From positions 32,001-96,000 of the forward strand of contig CBDBLV010000005.1 of NCBI GenBank assembly GCA_965207225.1: 64,000 nt of DNA, read 5' to 3'. Each line of letters starts with the position of its first letter. Within the stretch, counting starts at the first letter, position 1. The DNA comes from Dehalococcoidia bacterium (GTDB lineage Bacteria > Chloroflexota > Dehalococcoidia > Plut-88900). The position numbers and the translations under genes were made by a program. Positions 17,537-43,167 of the stretch are shown here, in pieces. The notes beneath the pieces were generated by a model. That model had not been told where the DNA came from. It saw only the letters and a program-made list of their open reading frames with translations, and searched no databases.

Positions 17537-17611
17537 TGGTAGCGGGGGTTGGATTCGAACCAACGACCTTCGGGTTATGAGCCCGACGAGCTGCCACTGC
17601 TCCACCCCGCG
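17537..17611 (-). tRNA. tRNA-fMet (initiator, CAT)
   Basis: CGCGGGGTGGAGCAGTGGCAGCTCGTCGGGCTCATAACCCGAAGGTCGTTGGTTCGAATCCAACCCCCGCTACCA: C1-A72 mismatch, three G-C pairs in the anticodon stem, encoded CCA. Confidence 0.97.
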
Positions 17612-17618
17612 TCGGGTG

Positions 17619-20833
<3,215 letters not shown>

Positions 20834-35338: not shown

Positions 35339-35461
35339 CTCCCCCGTACTGAACTAGAGGCCCACGTGGGTGCGACGCACCCACGTGGGCCTCTGTTCTT
35401 CTCTCCCCCTCTCCCTTATAGGCCCTAAGGGAGAGGGGGACCAAGGGGGTGAGGGTTCCCT
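35339..35461 (+). repeat. Double-hairpin dispersed repeat, copy 1
   Basis: Inverted copy at 41757-41880; 18-bp perfect stem followed by a CCCCTCTCCCT..AGGGAGAGGGG stem. Confidence 0.85.
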
Positions 35462-35550
35462 GCGAGGGTTGGGGGCATCCCTTCCCCTGTAGGGGTGCCC
35501 CTCGTGGGTACTCTGCCCGCCAACCACGCCAAGACTTGCATCCCTCCCCC

Positions 35551-35595
35551 CAACAAATCAAACCAATCCATCAATCCCACGAATCACAGTTCAGA
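35551..35595 (+). repeat. ATC-phased module (AATC-N-AATC-N-AATC-N-AATCACAGTTCAGA)
   Basis: Same 9/8/9 ATC spacing and identical AATCACAGTTCAGA end at 42655-42699 (-); degenerate third copy at ~42731-42777. Confidence 0.7.
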
Positions 35596-35624
35596 TATTC
35601 CCTTCAAAAGCCGCACATTTGCTC

Positions 35625-35653
35625 TTGACACACCTGTCCGACCGTACTATCAT
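35625..35653 (+). promoter_or_regulatory. sigma70 promoter of element A
   Basis: TTGACA (35625-30) N17 TATCAT (35648-53); conserved in copy B. Confidence 0.8.
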
Positions 35654-35659
35654 GTCCTC

Positions 35660-36197
35660 CGTCCGATCGAACACTAACTCACATCAGCAAAGGAGGAACC
35701 AAAAACCCAGGGAAGCCCCCGTGACCCGACACCGAGGACTCAACGCCCTAGCCCATCCCAAGACCTCTCCCCTCCCGTAGGGAGGCGACCGGCCAATCGC
35801 CCCCCCTCGTGAGACAGGCAGGTTGCGGCACAAGCGAAAAGCGCCATCTCCTCACCCAACGGGTCCCGTGACCCTTCCCCATCCATCCAGGCGATGGAAG
35901 GTCCACAACATTAAGCGGCACGCTCTTCACTTACGAGCCCTGCCGAAAAACCTCGGGCTATTACGCCCTTGGAAAAATCTCCCCCGTCGTTCCCCTCGGA
36001 GATTCCCGTTAACCCAGCGACGGTAGCGAGAAAACACCCACCCACCCCTCCGAGTGGGTCGGGAAAACTGAAAAACTGGTGGCAGAGACGCCCTCTGGCG
36101 AGAACCCCTCGCTTGTCTGCCATGTGACACAGGAATACGGGGCTGAACCAGGCTGGCCTCCCGCCCCCTGAAACTGAGTCCCGGACCTTCCATCGCC
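35660..36197 (+). ncRNA. Candidate large structured ncRNA, copy A
   Basis: No credible CDS; colinear blocks shared with 42029-42592(-); 15-bp perfect long-range pairing 35890-35904/36183-36197. Confidence 0.65.
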
Positions 36198-36287
36198 GAC
36201 CCCCTCCAAGACGGACAAACTGAAAACAGAAACCCCACAACTGAATAGAGACCGGGGTGTCACCGACCTGCCGGACCGGTGCGCCGG

Positions 36288-36345
36288 TTTGTACACCCCC
36301 GACCCTCGGGGTAGATTTGTACACCCCCGACCCTCGGGGTAGAAT
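36288..36345 (+). promoter_or_regulatory. Exact 28-bp tandem duplication containing the putative moaA promoter
   Basis: TTTGTACACCCCCGACCCTCGGGGTAGA twice (36288-36315, 36316-36343); TTGTAC-N17-TAGAAT. Confidence 0.7.
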
Positions 36346-36381
36346 GGAAGTCGGGAGGGGTGGCCTGTCCATTTCCAGCGC

Positions 36382-37422
36382 ATGAGCAACGACGCTTCCA
36401 CAACACACCCCGACGCCATTCTCGACCTGTTCGGGAGACCGCTGAGGGACCTGCGTATATCCGTCACCGACAGGTGCAACTTCAGATGCACCTTCTGCAT
36501 GCCCGCGGAGATATTCGGAGAGCGCTACCGCTTCCTGCCCAAGGATGACATCCTCACCTTCGAAGAGATAAGCCGCTTGGCCCAACTCTTCGTCAATCTC
36601 GGCGTCCGCAAGATACGCCTCACCGGCGGGGAGCCTCTCCTCCGCGACCAGCTTGAAATCCTTGTGGAACAGCTGGCCTCCATCGAAGGGCTGGAAGACC
36701 TGGCCCTCACGACCAATGCGTATCTTCTCTCCAAAAAGGCTCAGACACTAAAGGATGCCGGCCTGAAACGGGTCACAGTGAGCCTGCACACGCTGGATGA
36801 CCAGGTATTCGGGTACATGAATGGTCGGGGCTTCGGGACGGGTCGGGTGCTGGAAGGGATCCGGGCTGCGGAGGAAGCGGGTCTGGCCCCTATCAAGATT
36901 AACGTGGTCGTACAGAAGGGGGTCAACGAGCACACAATCGTCGACCTCACCCGCCGGGTCAAAGACATGGGCCACATCCTCCGCTTCATCGAGTTCATGG
37001 ACGTCGGCAACCTGAACCAGTGGGAGTCCGACCAGGTAGTCACCTCGCAGGAGATAGTCGGGCTCATCGAACGGGAGATGCCCCTTGAACCCGTCGACAA
37101 GAGCTACCGCGGCGAAGTCGCCGACCGCTACCGCTACGCCGACGGCAAAGGCGAGATCGGGGTCATATCCTCGGTGAGCAACCCGTTCTGCGGGGACTGC
37201 ACCCGGGCCCGCATCTCCGCCGAGGGCAAGGTCTACACCTGCCTGTTCGCATCCAAAGGGAATGACCTGCGCGGACCGCTCCGAGCCGGTGCCAGCGACG
37301 CGGACTTGACCGATATTATCAAAGGAATCTGGGCCCGCAGAGCCGACCGTTACTCGGAGGAGCGGGCTTCGCTCTCCGGGAGCCGCGCCAAGAAGGTGGA
37401 GATGTATCACATCGGCGGGTAG
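36382..37422 (+). CDS. moaA: GTP 3',8-cyclase MoaA
   Basis: LRISVTDRCNFRCTFC, PFCGDCTRAR...CLF, C-terminal MYHIGG. Confidence 0.97.
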   Translation: MSNDASTTHPDAILDLFGRPLRDLRISVTDRCNFRCTFCMPAEIFGERYRFLPKDDILTFEEISRLAQLFVNLGVRKIRLTGGEPLLRDQLEILVEQLASIEGLEDLALTTNAYLLSKKAQTLKDAGLKRVTVSLHTLDDQVFGYMNGRGFGTGRVLEGIRAAEEAGLAPIKINVVVQKGVNEHTIVDLTRRVKDMGHILRFIEFMDVGNLNQWESDQVVTSQEIVGLIEREMPLEPVDKSYRGEVADRYRYADGKGEIGVISSVSNPFCGDCTRARISAEGKVYTCLFASKGNDLRGPLRAGASDADLTDIIKGIWARRADRYSEERASLSGSRAKKVEMYHIGG

Positions 37423-37460
37423 CGGCGCCGGTGCAAATGGGAAAAGGAGAATTACCGGCC

Positions 37461-37937
37461 ATGCCAAACTACTGGATGATCGTAAGCTCGGCGGAAAACT
37501 TCGAGATCTCCCGGGAGCTGGGGTTCGAACTGCAGGGGATCAAGAGCCGGCACCGGAAGAAGGCGGAGAGGATGGAGCCCGGGGATCGGGTGCTCTACTA
37601 CCTGACCGGTGTTCAGCAGTTCGGGGGAACGGCGACCATAACCTCGCCCTATTACGAAGACCGCGCCCCGATCTGGAACAGCAAGAAGAAGGGCGAGGAG
37701 TACCCCTTCCGGTTCGGCATCAAGCCCGACCTGATCCTGGAGCCCGGTACATACGTGGACGCCAAGTCCATAGTCCCGCACCTGGAATACGTGAAGAGGT
37801 GGCCGCCCCAGCACTGGCACCTGGCCTTCCAGGGCAACGTACACCTGTTTTCGGAAGAGGACTTCTCCTTCATAGAGGGTGAGATAAGCAAGCGAATGCC
37901 GGAGCGCGAGGCGTCGGGGTCGGCGGCTGCCGGGTAG
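37461..37937 (+). CDS. EVE domain protein
   Basis: NYWMIV...MEPGDRVLYY...YPFRF, PUA/EVE-like. Confidence 0.8.
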   Translation: MPNYWMIVSSAENFEISRELGFELQGIKSRHRKKAERMEPGDRVLYYLTGVQQFGGTATITSPYYEDRAPIWNSKKKGEEYPFRFGIKPDLILEPGTYVDAKSIVPHLEYVKRWPPQHWHLAFQGNVHLFSEEDFSFIEGEISKRMPEREASGSAAAG

Positions 37938-37940
37938 AAA

Positions 37941-38633
37941 ATGCCTGACACCGGGCCCATAGACCTACCTCTTTTTCCCCTCAACGTTGTCCTATATCCG
38001 GGCATGGCCCTGCCTCTTCGCATATTCGAAGAGCGTTACAAGCTGATGATGCAGAAATGCATGGAGGGAGACAGGACATTCGGGGTGGTACTGATAAGGG
38101 AAGGGAAAGAGGTGGGCGGATCGGCGATTCCCTTCGAAGTGGGAACAGTGGCGAAGATTACGGATGTCGTGCCCCAGGGCCAGGGAAGGATGCACCTGAG
38201 CGCGATAGGACAAGACGTATTCCGCATAGTCGACGTCCAGCAGATAACCCCGTATATGGTGGGCCGCGTGGCGTTGCTGGAAAAGACCGAAGAACCTACT
38301 CCGAACGAATTGACAAACCGGGTCGTGCGCCACTTCCGGACCTACATGTCGCTATTGACGTCGTTGCGGGGTGGCGGGGACGGGGCGGTTGAGCTGGACC
38401 GGGACCCGGAAAGGCTTTCCTACACGGTGGCGGCAGAGCTGATGGCCGGGCCCCGGGAGAAGCAAGGCTTGCTGGAAGCGCCCTCGGCGAGGGCGCGTCT
38501 GGAAGAAGAGCTGAAGCTGCTCCAATCGACGAACCTGAGCCTGGAACTGTTCCTTGCAGAGAAGAGGAAGAAGGAGGCCCAGGGAGGCAAGAAGGACGAC
38601 TCCTCTGACAGGCCTCGGTTTTCTCTCAACTGA
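37941..38633 (+). CDS. LON peptidase substrate-binding domain protein
   Basis: LPLFPLNVVLYPG..LPLRIFEERYKLM. Confidence 0.9.
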   Translation: MPDTGPIDLPLFPLNVVLYPGMALPLRIFEERYKLMMQKCMEGDRTFGVVLIREGKEVGGSAIPFEVGTVAKITDVVPQGQGRMHLSAIGQDVFRIVDVQQITPYMVGRVALLEKTEEPTPNELTNRVVRHFRTYMSLLTSLRGGGDGAVELDRDPERLSYTVAAELMAGPREKQGLLEAPSARARLEEELKLLQSTNLSLELFLAEKRKKEAQGGKKDDSSDRPRFSLN

Positions 38634-38691
38634 CACCATTTACAACGGGCTTTGAAGCCCTCCCCTTGATTCTTTTAGGTCAACAGGCAGC

Positions 38692-39837
38692 CTAGTCGGA
38701 GGCGAGGACGAGGGTGCCGGTGGAGGAGAGGGTGCCTCCCGTGCCGTTGACGAGGCAGGTCTTGGCATCCTTCACCTGCCGATCGCCGCACTCGCCCCTG
38801 AGCTGCCGGGCGGCCTCCAGTAGGAGGAACATCCCGTACATGCCGGTGTGACAGTAGGAGAGGCCGCCGCCGTTGGTGTTCATCGGGAAGTCCCCGCCGG
38901 GCGCAGTCCGCTGGTTGGCAACGAACTCGGGGCCTTCGCCACGGCCGCAGAAGCCGAGGGACTCCAGGGTGATGAGGACGGTGTAGGTGAAGGAGTCATA
39001 GATCATGGCCAGGTCTATGTCGTCGTGGGTGAGGCCTGCCATTTCGAGGGCCCGGGGTCCAGTCTCGCGGGCAATGGTGGAGCAGAGGTCGGCCTGCTGG
39101 CCGATGCCGTCACCATGATCGTGGCCTTCGGCGGAGCCGAGGATCCAGACGGGCTTCTTCTTGGTGTTACGGGCCACGGCGGCTGAGGTGACGACGGTGG
39201 CCCCGCCGCCGTCGGTCACGAGACAGCAGTCGAAGAGGTGGAAGGGCCAGGAGATCCATCGGGACTCGTGGTAATCCTGGATGGTCATGTCGTCCTGCAT
39301 GAAGGCCTTGGGGTTCAGCTGCGCCCATTTGCGGGTGGCGACAGCTATTTCGGCCAGGGCGTCCCGGGTGCGCTCCTCGCCGAATTCGTGCATATATCGG
39401 CTACAGGCCAAGGCGTAACCGTGAGGGGCTATGACCAGGCCGTAGGGGTCCTCGTACTGGGCGCCGGGCATGTTGGGGTCGTCCCCTGCATAGGCCCGAG
39501 AGCTGCGCCCCGCCTCGCCGTGAACGATCAGGGCAACGTCGATGAGTCCGGCACTGATGGCGGCCAGGGCGTGCTCGACGTAGATGACGAAGGAAGAGCC
39601 ACCGACGTTGGTGCCGTCGGTGTACTTGGGCGTAATGCCCATGTACTCGGCCATGTTATAGGGAGACGGACCTGCCACGAACAGCCCGTCAACGTCAGAG
39701 AGGGAGAGGCCGGCGTCATCAAGAGCGTTAAATGCGGCCTCCGAGCCTAGCTGGAGGCGGGATTTGTTGGGGACGCGGCCTATTTCGTCGGACTCGTCAA
39801 CGCCGACAATTGCAGCCTTTCGCGAAAGGTCAGCCAT
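38692..39837 (-). CDS. SCP2-type thiolase-like protein
   Basis: AQLNPKA, DCCLVTDGG, IYDSFT, NTNGGGLSYCH. Confidence 0.88.
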   Translation of the reverse strand: MADLSRKAAIVGVDESDEIGRVPNKSRLQLGSEAAFNALDDAGLSLSDVDGLFVAGPSPYNMAEYMGITPKYTDGTNVGGSSFVIYVEHALAAISAGLIDVALIVHGEAGRSSRAYAGDDPNMPGAQYEDPYGLVIAPHGYALACSRYMHEFGEERTRDALAEIAVATRKWAQLNPKAFMQDDMTIQDYHESRWISWPFHLFDCCLVTDGGGATVVTSAAVARNTKKKPVWILGSAEGHDHGDGIGQQADLCSTIARETGPRALEMAGLTHDDIDLAMIYDSFTYTVLITLESLGFCGRGEGPEFVANQRTAPGGDFPMNTNGGGLSYCHTGMYGMFLLLEAARQLRGECGDRQVKDAKTCLVNGTGGTLSSTGTLVLASD

Positions 39838-39881
39838 GAGGGACCTCCTTGTTAGAGCTACCCGGGGCCCGGGAGTATGGG

Positions 39882-40292
39882 CTAGGCGGGTTTGAATTTG
39901 GGAAGGGAGATCTCGTCGGTTATGTCTTCGAAGACCACCTCAACGGGCATGCCGATGGAGAGGTTGTCGGGTGAGGGGTCGTCGATGACGATGTTGGTGG
40001 GCATCCTGGCGCCTTCCTCCAGTTCCACCACGGCCGCCACGTAGGGGCAGTGCTCACGGAAGGGAGGCGGGGAGCGGTGGACTATGGTGAAGGCGTAGAT
40101 CGTGCCCTTGCCGCTGCTCTGGACCCAGGAAACATCCTTGCATTGGTAGCCGGGGCAGAAGTCCCTGGGATAGAAGAAGACCGTGTCGCATTCGTTGCAC
40201 TTGCGCAGCCACAACTCGTGGGCCTTGGCTTTCTCCCAGTAGTAGTCTGACTCGGGCTGGGGGACGGGAACGGGTCGGTCGTAATCTGCCAT
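39882..40292 (-). CDS. DUF35 Zn-ribbon/OB-fold protein
   Basis: CNEC...YPRDFCP, GKGTIYAFT, VELEEG, IGMPVEVVF. Confidence 0.9.
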   Translation of the reverse strand: MADYDRPVPVPQPESDYYWEKAKAHELWLRKCNECDTVFFYPRDFCPGYQCKDVSWVQSSGKGTIYAFTIVHRSPPPFREHCPYVAAVVELEEGARMPTNIVIDDPSPDNLSIGMPVEVVFEDITDEISLPKFKPA

Positions 40293-40333
40293 ATCAATCA
40301 CCTCTTTCGAAATAGCGTGATTCGTTTCTCTCT

Positions 40334-41479
40334 CTAGTCGGCGGCCAGGACAATGGTGCCAGTGGAGGACAGGGTTCCTCCGGTGCCGTTGACAAGGGAG
40401 GTCTTGGCACCGGCGACCTGGCGGTCTCCGCATTCGCCCCTGAGCTGCCGGGCGGCTTCGAGGAGGAGGAACATGCCGTACATGCCGGTGTGGCAGTAGG
40501 AAAGGCCGCCGCCGTTGGTGTTCATGGGGAAGTCGCCGCCGGGCGCAGTCCGCTGGTTGGCAACGAAGTCAGGCCCCTCGCCCCGTCCGCAAAAGCCGAG
40601 GGACTCCAGGGTGATGAGCACGGTGTAGGTGAAGGAGTCATAGATCATGGCGAGGTCTATGTCGTCGTGGGTGAGGCCTGCCATTTCGAGGGCCCGGGGC
40701 CCGGTCTCACGGGCGATGGTGGAGCAGAGGTCGTGCTGCTGGAGGATTCCCTCGCCGTGGTCGTGGCCCTCTGCGGTGCCCAGTACCCAGACCGGCTTCT
40801 TCTTGGTGTTCTTGGCCACCGCCGCGGAGGTGATTACCGTGGCGCCGCCGCCATCGGTGACGAGGCAGCAGTCGAAGAGGTGGAAGGGCCAGGAGATCCA
40901 GCGGGACTCGTTGTAGTCCTCCATGGACATGTCGTCCTTGATGAAGGACTTGGGGTTGAGCTGCGCCCATTTCCGGGTGGAAACGGCAATCTCGCCGAGG
41001 GCGTTCTGGGTGCGCTCCTGTCCGAACTCGTGCATGTAGCGGGTGGCGGCAAGGGCGTAGGGATGAGGCTCGATGACGAGGCCATAGGGATGCTCGTACT
41101 GAGCTATGGGCATGTTGGGGTCGTCCCCTGCATAGGCCCGAGAGCTGCGTCCCGCTTCGCCGTGAACGATCAGGGCCACCTCAATGAGTCCGGCGCTGAT
41201 GGCAGCGAGGGCGTGCTCCACGTAAATTACGAAGGAAGAGCCGCCGACGTTGGTGCCGTCGGTGTACTTGGGTACGATGCCCATATATTCGGCCATGTTA
41301 TAGGGAGACGGGCCAGCGACGAAAAGCCCGTCGACGTCCGATAGTGAGAGGCCGGCGTCGTCGAGGGCGTTGAAAGCAGCCTCCGAGCCTAGCTGGAGGC
41401 GGGACTTGTTGGGCACCTTGCCAATCTCGTCGGACTCGTCAACGCCGACGATAGCGGCCATACGGGACAGATCTGACAT
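40334..41479 (-). CDS. SCP2-type thiolase-like protein (close paralog)
   Basis: Same length and almost all residues shared with 38692..39837. Confidence 0.88.
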   Translation of the reverse strand: MSDLSRMAAIVGVDESDEIGKVPNKSRLQLGSEAAFNALDDAGLSLSDVDGLFVAGPSPYNMAEYMGIVPKYTDGTNVGGSSFVIYVEHALAAISAGLIEVALIVHGEAGRSSRAYAGDDPNMPIAQYEHPYGLVIEPHPYALAATRYMHEFGQERTQNALGEIAVSTRKWAQLNPKSFIKDDMSMEDYNESRWISWPFHLFDCCLVTDGGGATVITSAAVAKNTKKKPVWVLGTAEGHDHGEGILQQHDLCSTIARETGPRALEMAGLTHDDIDLAMIYDSFTYTVLITLESLGFCGRGEGPDFVANQRTAPGGDFPMNTNGGGLSYCHTGMYGMFLLLEAARQLRGECGDRQVAGAKTSLVNGTGGTLSSTGTIVLAAD

Positions 41480-41666
41480 TATCGACCTCCTGCGGTTATG
41501 GGGGCGTGCCTGACCAGGGGCGGGATGGCCCGCGCAGAGGCACAAGATTGATAGTGGTTCCCCCCAAAAGCGGCCCTTATTCTATATTCGGGCGTCGGGG
41601 GTGTCAATTTGGCACATTCATTCGGTGGTCCAGCGGCAAGCCGGGTCCTTATTCGGTTGTGGGGTT

Positions 41667-41718
41667 TTGATTGAACGTTGATTGAACTCGTAGCTGTTTT
41701 GATTGAATGACGCCTAAA
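41667..41718. repeat. Phased GATTGAA repeat, short copy
   Basis: 48 of 52 nt identical to 15351-15402. Confidence 0.8.
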
Positions 41719-41756
41719 GGGACGACGGGGGATTTCGCGTGGCGCAGGGGACGGGA

Positions 41757-41880
41757 AGGGAACCCTCACCCCCTTGATCCCCCTCTCCCTCAGGGCCATT
41801 GAGGGAGAGGGGGAGAGAAGAACAGAGGCAGAGGTCGGCGCTTCTGCGCCGACCTCTGCCTCTAGTTCAGTACTGGGGAG
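41757..41880 (-). repeat. Double-hairpin dispersed repeat, copy 2
   Basis: Reverse complement of 35339-35461 with compensatory stem changes. Confidence 0.85.
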
Positions 41881-41929
41881 AGGGCCGGGGATGGGGTGAA
41901 CTGCGGGGTTGTGGGTGATTTTTCCGGAG

Positions 41930-41960
41930 GGATGGATTCCTGCCTCCGCAGGAATGACGG
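41930..41960. repeat. REP-like palindrome
   Basis: GGATGGATTCCTGCCTCCGCAGGAATGAC, same family as ~33360-33390. Confidence 0.65.
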
Positions 41961-42028
41961 AGAGGGGAGGCGGTGGGTTATTGGGTTGTGGGATTTGGGT
42001 TGGCATTTTGTTTGTTGGGTTTTGGGTT

Positions 42029-42592
42029 GGCGATGGAGGTCCGGGACTCGGATGCAGGACCTCGATGGCACCTACGCCGACGCTGGTGGCATCGGCGGTT
42101 GTCCTGCCTTTCCCTTCACGCATGCCTTGGGAGACTTGCCGGTGTCGAGGGCGTCTCTGCGTGGGGACATCCGCTCTCCGCATCAGCGCTCGACCGCTGT
42201 ACGGGGCGGCATATCGGCTCGATTACCGCCGTGGGCGGAAGGAGCCGCATAAGGGCGCTAAGGCCCTGCATAACGAGTCAGAAGACTCGCGGAATTCCTC
42301 GACGAGGGTAAAGTCGGCGAGGCGTATACGCCCGGGTAAGGGGCGTCGTATCGGCAAGGGCGTCGTTATAGAGAGGCCTGCTGCCGCATAGAGTCGATGG
42401 ACCATCCATCGCCTGGAAGCCAGGGAAGGGGGTACGGGACCCGTGGTGAGGAGATAACACCTTCAGCTTGAGCCTCGGGCCTGCGCGAGGGCCTTTGGGA
42501 TGGGCGAGTGCGTTGAGTCCCTCAGGTCGGGTCTCGGGGGCTTCCCCGGGGTTTTGGTTCCTCCTTCTATTATCAGATGTTTGTTCGAACGC
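42029..42592 (-). ncRNA. Candidate large structured ncRNA, copy B
   Basis: Colinear conserved blocks with copy A; pairing 42399-42413 with 42029-42042 and 42515-42521 with 42043-42049. Confidence 0.65.
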
Positions 42593-42597
42593 AGGAT

Positions 42598-42626
42598 ATG
42601 ATAGTACGGTCGGACGGGTGTGTCAA
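42598..42626 (-). promoter_or_regulatory. sigma70 promoter of element B
   Basis: Minus strand TTGACA (42626-21) N17 TATCAT (42603-598); one mismatch to copy A over 29 bp. Confidence 0.8.
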
Positions 42627-42711
42627 GAGCAAATGTGCGGCTATTGGGGGAATATCTGAACTGTGATTTATGGGATAAAGGGATTACTTTGATTTCTTGA
42701 AGGGGGGCGTC

Positions 42712-43167
42712 TCAGCAGAGGGCACCTTTATCTGTATTGGGATCTATGGGGATTGCTGGGTTTCCCTGGTTCTCTTGCTTGAATTTGCTGTTGGCGAGTC
42801 TTTTGAATTGGAGGCTTTTGGCACCGAAATTGATTAGTAGTCCTACCTCTAGGTCATAGGCTTCCAGGTAGTTGATGGCCTGTGCAAGGTGAACATCTTC
42901 GAGTTTAATGACGGCCTTTAGCTCAACGGAGACCAGGCCATCGACCAGGAAGTCCACCCTTCTAGTGCCGATCTGCTGCTCTTTGTAGTAGATGGGCATT
43001 TCATGCTCCCGGCTGAAGGAAAGTCCCTGGTCGGCCATCTCGATCTCCAATGCCCGCTGGTAGATCACCTCCTGGAAGCCGTTACCCAAGGCTGAATGCA
43101 CCGTCATCGCGCACCCGATAACCCTTCCGGTCAACTCCGAATACTTGTAGTTACCGCTGGTCATCAC
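42712..43167 (-). CDS. GxxExxY protein (PD-(D/E)XK-like nuclease family)
   Basis: LGNGFQEVIY, RVDFLV...VELK, QAINYL...GLLINFG. Confidence 0.93.
   Translation of the reverse strand: MMTSGNYKYSELTGRVIGCAMTVHSALGNGFQEVIYQRALEIEMADQGLSFSREHEMPIYYKEQQIGTRRVDFLVDGLVSVELKAVIKLEDVHLAQAINYLEAYDLEVGLLINFGAKSLQFKRLANSKFKQENQGNPAIPIDPNTDKGALC

Follow-up and report, generated by a model that had tools for sequence, protein, structure and literature searches.

The subject of this analysis is a pair of similar intergenic units, here called A and B, located in a 64,000-nt stretch of the genome of a Dehalococcoidia bacterium (contig CBDBLV010000005.1, positions 32,001-96,000; the host genome comprises 4.03 Mb in 5 contigs and is 92.3% complete). 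The whole stretch is referred to as the window, and positions given without a contig are positions in it. Unit A (35582-36260, + strand) precedes moaA, which codes for a protein with Radical_SAM and Mob_synth_C domains (36382-37422, +), and unit B (42700-41980, − strand) precedes a thiolase-like gene (40334-41545, −). When the two units were aligned, mean column identity was 76%, with identical long blocks and unalignable stretches between them. A preliminary description of the window had presented A and B as the two copies of a promoter-driven, structured non-coding RNA element.

The order of parts is the same in both units: promoter and leader, the sequence AAAGGAGG, a first hairpin domain (domain 1) with a variable insert (V1), a 15-bp stem closing a second variable segment (V2; stem and V2 form domain 2) and an A/C-rich tail. 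The promoter of A, with its −35 TTGACA at 35625-35630 and its −10 TATCAT at 35648-35653, matches the consensus at 11 of 12 positions and has a predicted start at ~35660; that of B (42598-42626, −) is of the same type, P1 (TTGACA-N17-TATCAT), also matches at 11 of 12 positions and has a predicted start at ~42591. In A, AAAGGAGG (35689-35696) is a perfect Shine-Dalgarno (SD) match, and no ATG, GTG or TTG is found within reach of its AAGGAGG (35690-35696) or of that of B (42566-42560, −). Domain 1 of A (35710-35879) is made of GGGAAG (35710-35715) facing CTTCCC (35874-35879) and, inside, GACCCG (35723-35728) facing CGGGTC (35860-35865); it encloses V1 (35729-35859), which holds GGACTC (35736-41) and CATCTCCTCA. 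The equivalent domain of B (42423-42546, −) pairs GGGAAG (42546-42541) with CTTCCC (42428-42423) and GACCCG (42533-42528) with CGGGTC (42443-42438), and its V1 belongs to class V1.0. Domain 2 of A (35890-36197) has a 15-bp stem (35890-35904/36183-36197) around a V2 of class V2.0 (35905-36182), and that of B (42029-42413, −) a stem with one bulged T (42413-42399/42042-42029) around a V2 of class V2.1. The tail of A (36198-36247) starts with GACCCCCTCC and ends in CCCCACAACTGAATA; that of B lies at 41975-42028 (−). No gene was placed within A or B by a codon-usage caller of open reading frames (ORFs). In these respects (promoters, lack of a credible ORF, AAGGAGG without a start codon, three helices) the preliminary description was accurate.

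Its view of a two-copy element was not. A search of the host genome with nhmmer and BLASTN returned 58 nhmmer hits, which merged into 45 loci, ~41 of them units. All three anchor sequences (AAGGAGGAACC, CAGGCGATGGA and TCCATCGCC) are present in 39 of the 45 loci; the remaining 6 are the two halves of one split copy, one divergent copy and three terminase genes or remnants. The unit that is split carries an IS21-like insertion inside V1 (G000:C1:67074-69650, within C1:66900-70080) with istA/istB-like ORFs on the minus strand. With BLAST, the family was found in all 8 congeneric genomes (19-31 matches each) and, in the same class, in none of 32 further genomes (3 from other genera of the family and 29 from other families). 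Of 80 loci fetched from the eight relatives, 78 share the unit architecture. A pattern scan of GTDB genomes gave at least 99 stretches, and among the 80 matches listed all were titled 'Dehalococcoidia bacterium'; exact block-1 and stem patterns had 0 matches among IMG/VR viral contigs. A and B are thus members of a genus-restricted family of modular intergenic units of 0.6-0.9 kb, with ~41 copies in this genome.

The modular build was analysed in a set of 117 copies, composed of the 39 complete own copies and the 78 from relatives. Three unrelated promoter-plus-leader modules occur (TTGACAcacctgtccgaccgtacTATCAT, TTGACTtctattacacccgtgcTAAACT and TTGACAtgtaaacatttgagctttaTATATT), each joined to the common core exactly at AAGGAGG; P1, the module of A and B, also precedes many other copies. 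At a distance of 15-85 nt before the SD, 39/39 own copies and 105/117 overall have a sigma-70-like promoter that agrees with the consensus at 9 or more of 12 positions, a score reached by 44 of 2340 shuffled windows. The SD motif is conserved in nearly all 117 copies and is not followed by a start codon in the consensus; between AAAGGAGG and the 16S 3' end, ...CACCTCCTTTCT (16S 3' end read as GGATCACCTCCTTTCT), complementarity is perfect. Where V1 is only ~68 nt long, a bare hairpin GACCC-CAC-GGGTC (loop CAC) is seen inside GGGAAG/CTTCCC; other copies have a V1 module of 100-240 nt in the loop of domain 1, and two big classes account for 67 and 36 of the 117 copies. A GGGGAA variant co-occurs with TTCCCC in this domain. 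The stem of domain 2 is GGCGATGGAAGGTCC/GGACCTTCCATCGCC; a second stem type exists, in which the helix continues with GACGC..CCTGG facing CCAGG..GCGTC. It consists of other letters and still pairs, which indicates that the stem is kept despite sequence difference, but both arms travel with the module. V2 is 190-550 nt long, and the tail ends in CCCCACAAC(T/C)GAA. Clustering of the modules gave 13 clusters for V1 and 15 for V2. The conserved blocks of the preliminary description are real, but what it called unrelated spacers is a limited set of interchangeable modules. Likewise, its picture of a conserved core with a freely evolving periphery does not hold, since the periphery is swapped as whole modules, even at orthologous loci, and the core is almost invariant. 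Caution is advisable in similar scans, since what looks like a 'conserved core, variable periphery' when only two copies are compared may prove to be a repeat built of modules, one of them a pseudogene.

Origin of the second hairpin domain

Weak profile matches led to two intact genes of 462-464 amino acids (C1:233687-235075 and C5:241269-242663), both of which match PHROG terminase large-subunit profiles weakly (E about 1e-4). A portal gene (phrog_64, E 3e-30) adjoins one of the two. At least 3330 homologues were found; the best 120 listed cover the protein over nearly its full length and several of them have the terminase nuclease domain PF17289. When the terminase protein was compared with the 117 units by tblastn, V2 of several classes was matched (E down to 1.4e-29; 35-60% identity over residues ~224-378), the matches being spread over three frames. 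At the nucleotide level, stem and V2 of A and B are colinear with terminase nt ~684-1103: the V2.0 profile, to which A belongs, matches the terminase gene at E 7.8e-7 (pairwise score z 7.1 versus shuffles), with a profile of A and B, the terminase genes score E 1.8e-11 and 6.2e-8, and the pairwise score of B, which is colinear with the gene, has a z of 8.1. B itself has no tblastn match, whereas its class-mates own0, own34, own40 and own33 do. Several of the blocks that the preliminary description had singled out (GCGGCA..., GCAGAGACGCCCTC and GAGTCCCGGACCT-CCATCGCC) all lie within this homology. Homologues of the same length cover the segment, which indicates that it is native to the terminase protein and that V2 is a decayed copy of coding sequence. 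On these sequence comparisons, stem and V2 together represent the nuclease-coding segment of a large-subunit terminase gene of prophage or gene transfer agent (GTA) type, itself resident in the genome, copied in decayed form and with its frame broken.

Could the whole unit be a decayed protein-coding gene? The homology of V2 and the presence of an SD at the 5' end would be expected in that case, and the preliminary description had itself named decayed coding sequence as an alternative. However, the comparison of 3115 called ORFs with the units returned only the terminase family (the 2 intact genes and ORFs over decayed copies) and one ORF that overlaps own40, the matches being confined to V2 and other protein families giving none. 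In addition, frames are broken, indels between copies are not multiples of three and the consensus offers no start codon after the SD. The alternative therefore applies to the ~280-nt domain and not to the rest of the unit; with no gene called in A or B, we rejected a coding reading of the unit as a whole, which seems to us scarcely credible.

The intact terminase genes of the genus carry the same 15-nt inverted repeat (GACGATGGAAGGTTCC ... GGAACCTCCATCGTC) around their nuclease-coding segment; such genes were located at L241:4688-6073 (+), at L242:5270-6661 (−) and in G001 (L243). Compared with shuffles, the fold of this segment has z-scores of −4.2, −7.7 and −8.8, whereas the remainder of these genes scored only −0.6 to −1.6 where it was tested. 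The orthologous terminase segment of two further genera of the family, both without units, lacks the repeat and has z-scores of −1.2 and −0.2. A piece of a phage packaging gene has thus become the main structured domain of a host repeat and, among the genera compared, the intact gene has the inverted repeat only in the genus with the repeats.

These observations bear on a phage- or GTA-linked function, in which the units would be chromosomal mimics of a structured site of the terminase gene and serve as pac-like packaging starts, from which host DNA would be transferred, or as RNA or DNA decoys for a terminase or a regulator. Such a role would account for the correspondence of stem and V2 to terminase nt ~684-1103, for the inverted repeat and strong fold excess inside the intact terminase genes of the genus and for their absence from the two genera without units; the portal gene next to one terminase copy and the existence of more dispersed terminase-derived families would also agree with it. 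On the other hand, nothing marks the segment as a packaging site, and known pac sites are usually in the small-terminase gene. The promoters and the orientation of the units towards genes (see below) would be left unexplained, unit strands in the relative G008 have no replichore pattern (coordinates judged by eye) and the exact patterns were not found in IMG/VR. We regard this reading as improbable. The same low degree of belief applies to its most far-reaching version, in which ~40-50 promoter-driven copies of the terminase segment would act as mimics of a packaging or terminase-binding site, as DNA or RNA, and so couple a domesticated packaging machine to host loci before core genes; if true, it would amount to host-encoded directed gene transfer or to control of the phage or GTA.

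Two further groups of terminase-related sequences were encountered. A second repeat family has seven loci (G000 C3:255804-256156, C5:1737117-1737474, C3:167325-167683, C5:1005078-1005546, C5:1189885-1190353, C5:1330715-1331073 and C2:179534-179993) with the same stem and a V2-like domain; what precedes these is not the 5' part of the units but AAGGAG, then ATG and a long open frame, and its copies differ in length by numbers of nt not divisible by three. Five terminase fragments in a decayed state (residues ~192-367; G000 C2:254630, C3:315571, C4:333022, C5:1308107 and C5:1895478) are dispersed and all intergenic, and several contain a ~165-nt internal tandem duplication.

History, fold and placement of the units

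Many sites are shared between species. A unit is found at leuS in this genome and in the relatives G008, G004 and G006, at rpoB in this genome, G005 and G008, and at recA and nusA in this genome, G008 and G007, and one further gene has a unit in six species. Such orthologous units differ in promoter type, V1, V2 and tail. At moaA, where a unit is present in this genome, G008 and G005, the MoaA proteins of this genome and G008 are 99% identical, yet the V1 and V2 modules of the two units differ. Within the genome, many unit pairs are 80-93% identical over hundreds of nt and stand before genes for unrelated proteins, which agrees with the definition of a putative mobile promoter (a stretch of 50 nt or more, with an identity of 80% or higher, in front of non-homologous genes of the same genome). 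These patterns fit sites that are old and retained, the content of which would have been reshuffled by recombination at the invariant blocks, plus some gain and loss of whole units.

The units may instead be selfish, non-autonomous repeat DNA, comparable to miniature inverted-repeat transposable elements (MITEs) or short interspersed elements (SINEs) or spread by recombination, with promoter and hairpins as by-products and copies kept only where they are harmless, that is upstream of genes and co-oriented with them. The ~41 copies in one genus only, the moaA site (filled in 3 species and empty in 3), the mosaic modules, the captured gene fragment, the presence of other repeat families around the units and the four reverse transcriptase genes of the genome would all be natural for such DNA. 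However, the 5' promoter module and the 3' A/C-rich tail are not complementary, so that the unit ends do not form terminal inverted repeats of the kind that mark a MITE; the sole long inverted repeat is internal and closes V2. No target-site duplication was seen at unit ends, the upstream flank being unshared and the junction unreadable at the filled and empty moaA sites. Y1 (HUH) transposase (PF01797) gave 0 matches in the own genome, which is 92.3% complete, and this speaks against an element derived from REPIN/RAYT or IS200/IS605. Moreover, many sites are common to species in which the flanking proteins are only 75-90% identical, which indicates that the copies are old and retained; the promoter is retained in 105/117 copies; and an RNA copy would lose the promoter, because it lies upstream of the transcript. 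Taken together, we consider selfish DNA unlikely, although it is the first of the alternatives to be reckoned with.

As for the fold, Rfam 15 found only a 23S rRNA and one tRNA in the whole window at the gathering score, only weak microRNA-type matches on flanking hairpins in the 35400-42900 region with E up to 10, and no match in four extra loci. The preliminary description had seen no hallmarks of tmRNA, RNase P, SRP or group II introns in A and B, and this is borne out; riboswitches, RNase P, tmRNA, the signal recognition particle (SRP) RNA, 6S RNA, group I and group II introns, HEARO, OLE, GOLLD and ROOL were set aside for want of an Rfam 15 match. Unit A folds with a z-score of −5.99 on the sense strand (0/100 shuffles as good) and of −1.39 on the antisense strand. 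In the domain 2 of 15 copies, the sense strand gave −3.7 to −7.9 and the antisense strand −2.4 to −6.9, the sense value being the more negative in 13 of the 15. The A-type domain 2 (V2.0) has 85% mean identity over 39 copies from 6 genomes, and its loops are as conserved as its stems. The structure that RNAalifold proposes for it has 73 pairs, and 99.1% of the pair cells are standard (37-46% in slid controls). Four of the 73 pairs are changed on both sides, for a total of 25 cells (0/500 shuffles), and the covariation score is 0.070 versus 0.056 for shuffles (0/500 as high), with the reservation that for both measures the structure comes from the same alignment and the copies are related. G-U is the commonest state of three pairs, each of which is also seen as G-C and as A-U, and two pairs are always G-U, a pattern that favours the sense strand as RNA; alternation between G-U, G-C and A-U is frequent in the domain. 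Support for structure at the RNA level is thus modest: of the structured RNA initially proposed, the sense-strand fold is retained, the covariation is only modest and the two-copy RNA gene is abandoned.

The crossing GGACTC/GAGTCC pair that had been put forward as a pseudoknot does not survive comparison of the 117 copies: 47 of them have both halves, 50 have the 5' half alone, 16 have the 3' half alone and 4 lack both, without association and without any compensatory variant seen. This result is one of those to be weighed when the units are regarded as stand-alone, multicopy genes for a structured non-coding RNA acting in trans (as a scaffold, a sponge for 30S subunits or a protein, or a ribozyme-like molecule), with an orientation bias that would only reflect tolerance of read-through. 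This interpretation draws on the fact that the units carry their own promoters, on the sense-strand fold excess, on the 85% identity of V2.0 over 39 copies and 6 genomes, loops included, on the modest but positive covariation, on the lack of a matching Rfam family and on the terminator-like hairpins that follow B and 11 other own copies. But the terminator-like module is found behind 3/78 copies of relatives only, or 15/117 overall, which leaves 102/117 without a recognized terminator. A single shared function in trans is hard to picture for units with three leaders, several V1 classes and 12 or more V2 classes that do not align with one another; V2 is a decayed coding sequence; and gene conversion, rather than selection, can give high identity. 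Dedicated RNA genes therefore strike us as rather unlikely, slightly more so than selfish DNA.

None of the 39 complete copies is inside a called gene (according to the calls of our own script), with one called ORF overlapping one copy. The next downstream gene is co-oriented in 35/38 copies, a further copy being at a contig end, and the upstream gene is divergent in 24/39. Core genes found downstream include rpoB, recA, gyrB, nusA, rpsO, leuS, a Glu/Gln-tRNA ligase gene and def; genes for metabolism and envelope include moaA, thiolase-like genes, lgt, folD, speH, the FBPase gene and katG; and there are also several amidohydrolase genes and genes for a CoA-transferase, PrpD, a Rieske oxygenase, a luciferase-like oxidoreductase, transporters and one IS481 transposase. 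A survey of the neighbourhoods of homologues, advocated in the preliminary description, thus yields a constant intergenic position and a largely constant orientation but downstream genes that are functionally unrelated. A riboswitch, or a cis-regulatory leader for a single pathway, was ruled out because of this diversity. Where inspected, the units sit just upstream of the genes' own promoters.

We tentatively favour, with a probability of about 0.42, a reading in which each unit is a recombining promoter-plus-structured-leader cassette, transcribed towards the downstream gene and providing it with an additional, distal promoter and a 5' leader. The unit would be transcribed from its own promoter to give a long structured non-coding RNA which, most copies having no terminator behind them, would run on into the downstream gene. 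The SD near the 5' end could bind 30S subunits and so block RNase J, as in the STAB-SD stabiliser discussed below, and together with the stable hairpins it would protect the transcript; copies would be homogenized and reshuffled by recombination at the invariant blocks. The cassette is preferred because promoters are retained, 35/38 copies face the next gene, a terminator is mostly absent, the SD is STAB-SD-like and a homologue of RNase J is present in the genome (561.7 bits versus a cut-off of 400).

Several points weigh against a cassette of this kind. Transcription and read-through into the gene are what we infer from the sequence. A strong terminator-like hairpin follows 12/39 own copies, B included, and those copies would not feed the gene. 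Behind the unit, the gene has its own promoter (at least 9/12) in 13/35 copies, which means that the cassette is not needed for expression; this is the case for the two genes inspected, moaA (TGTACA-N16-TAGAAT, 36318-36345, +) and the thiolase-like gene (TTGACA-N17-TAGAAT, 41579-41607, −), both found by promoter scan. In 3/6 species (G001, G003 and G007) moaA has no unit, its own promoter coming directly after the neighbouring gene. Both strands of domain 2 beat shuffles, as any DNA palindrome would. The core blocks and helices are nearly invariant and hence offer little covariation, so that their pairing is neither supported nor refuted. The SD itself may be hidden by pairing, either with CAUCUCCUCA in V1 or, in some copies, with CCCUCC of the tail: from a gappy alignment of the 5' domain (63 copies), RNAalifold predicted a structure that lacks the nested helices GGGAAG/CTTCCC and GACCC/GGGTC and instead joins GGAG of the SD to CTCC of the conserved CAUCUCCUCA, and the minimum-energy fold of A pairs the SD with GACCCCCTCC. 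Finally, it is not obvious what a terminase-derived domain would do in a leader.

If the units are transcribed in the proposed way, one genus has placed the same add-on promoter and structured leader of 0.6-0.9 kb before ~40 genes, rpoB, recA, gyrB, nusA and leuS among them, and keeps reshuffling the parts. Promoter and leader reuse in bacteria would then have an example of unusual size and clarity, and the spread and homogenization of regulatory DNA could be followed in a natural system.

Other sequences around the two units deserve mention. Between the tail of A and moaA there is a 3' extension (36248-36345, +; GACCGGGGTGTCACC...CCGGTTTGT) that ends with the moaA promoter, and the promoter region TTTGTACACCCCCGACCCTCGGGGTAGA (36291-36345, +) is a tandem duplication. 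The half-site GTACACC and the palindrome GGTGTACACC are met again immediately before the −35 of several other genes that follow units, and this may be an operator for a shared regulator. The intrinsic-terminator-like module after B (41813-41864, −) consists of a 19-bp stem (41864-41823), 13 of its pairs being G-C, and then TTCTTCTCTC. Found also upstream of A (35355-35395), it is a repeat in its own right and one part of a three-part repeat (35355-35441, +, and 41864-41779, −) in which the hairpin with TTCTTCTCTC is accompanied by a second hairpin (TCTCCCCCTCTCCC...GGGAGAGGGGGA) and a box (GGGGGTGAGGGTTCCC); this repeat, upstream of A and downstream of B, occurs at many other intergenic sites. 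Between the B tail and the thiolase promoter, a ~310-bp block (41649-41975, −) contains the hairpin modules as well as TTCAATCAA motifs in tandem (41707-41665). With a copy of CCCACAACC-AATAA on either side, it resembles an insertion, bounded by a direct repeat, into a tail of the A type. Contigs from two DNA runs covered the region only with joints confounded by repeats, such as 41667 to 42007 in one contig with a side of 31 letters, and no conclusion is drawn from them. Directly upstream of B and on the same strand is a gene of the PD-(D/E)XK nuclease family (PDDEXK_3; 42712-43167, −), and moaA is followed by an EVE-domain gene (37431-37937) and a gene for a Lon substrate-binding domain (37941-38633). 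The 23S rRNA match of the window (17540-20796, −), which a tRNA adjoins, is 3139 nt long against a model of 2925 positions, so that the gene probably holds insertions; the 16S gene is on another contig (C4:510741-512337), and the rRNA genes are therefore unlinked. An origin of the units as rRNA leaders was rejected, no family match adjoining the 23S gene.

Comparison with known systems

Literature searches with general terms retrieved no description of the A/B repeat family, which was therefore compared with described elements that share one or more of its properties. Correia and ERIC elements are dispersed, intergenic, promoter-carrying and hairpin-forming repeats that are co-transcribed with their neighbours; they are ~100-150 bp long and have terminal inverted repeats and target duplications. 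The A/B units differ from them in being 4-6 times longer and modular, with an inverted repeat that is internal, where it closes V2, and no target duplication seen. Both elements have been named as promoter-bearing miniature repeats (PMC3575422).

For the SD, the precedent is STAB-SD of Bacillus thuringiensis cry3A, described in PMC4113751 as a 5' mRNA stabiliser: a long untranslated leader has, close to its 5' end, a sequence that resembles an SD but does not serve for initiation. The resemblance lies in the complementarity of AAAGGAGG to the 16S 3' end, in the missing start codon and in the RNase J homologue of the genome. STAB-SD is a short motif, whereas A and B are members of a 0.7-kb repeat in which a stabilising effect would follow by analogy and in which the SD may pair within the RNA. 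The terminase-derived segment calls to mind the pseudo-pac sites used in generalised transduction, which are reported to be chromosomal look-alikes of phage sequence (PMC11260489). The A/B units are chromosomal look-alikes of phage sequence from the terminase region; they depart from pseudo-pac sites in that their segment has no sign of pac function and that promoters and an orientation relative to genes are present.

OLE, GOLLD, ROOL and HEARO/omega RNA are large bacterial RNAs, structured or multicopy, with one conserved architecture per family. The units share with them the size class, an elaborate predicted fold and the lack of coding capacity, but have interchangeable modules, three promoters and a pseudogene-derived domain, and no Rfam match with E up to 10. 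Pack-MULEs and Helitrons are non-autonomous eukaryotic DNA transposons that capture gene fragments. The A/B repeats, too, contain part of a host or phage gene, which is amplified with them; unlike in those transposons, neither a transposase nor ends are defined for it.

The closest described concept is the putative mobile promoter, that is, highly similar upstream regions before non-homologous genes in one genome (Matus-Garcia, Nijveen and van Passel 2012; PMC3575422). Such regions were scored on 100-nt windows and occur mostly as pairs, some have RNA motifs, and the mechanism of their mobilisation is unknown (PMC3575422). Like them, the A/B units are similar upstream regions before unrelated genes; unlike them, they number ~40, are 0.6-0.9 kb long, contain a full promoter, two hairpin domains and a gene-derived module, and lie upstream of the genes' own promoters. 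The A/B family is an unusual set of dispersed promoter-bearing intergenic repeats that has an unexplained tie to a terminase gene.

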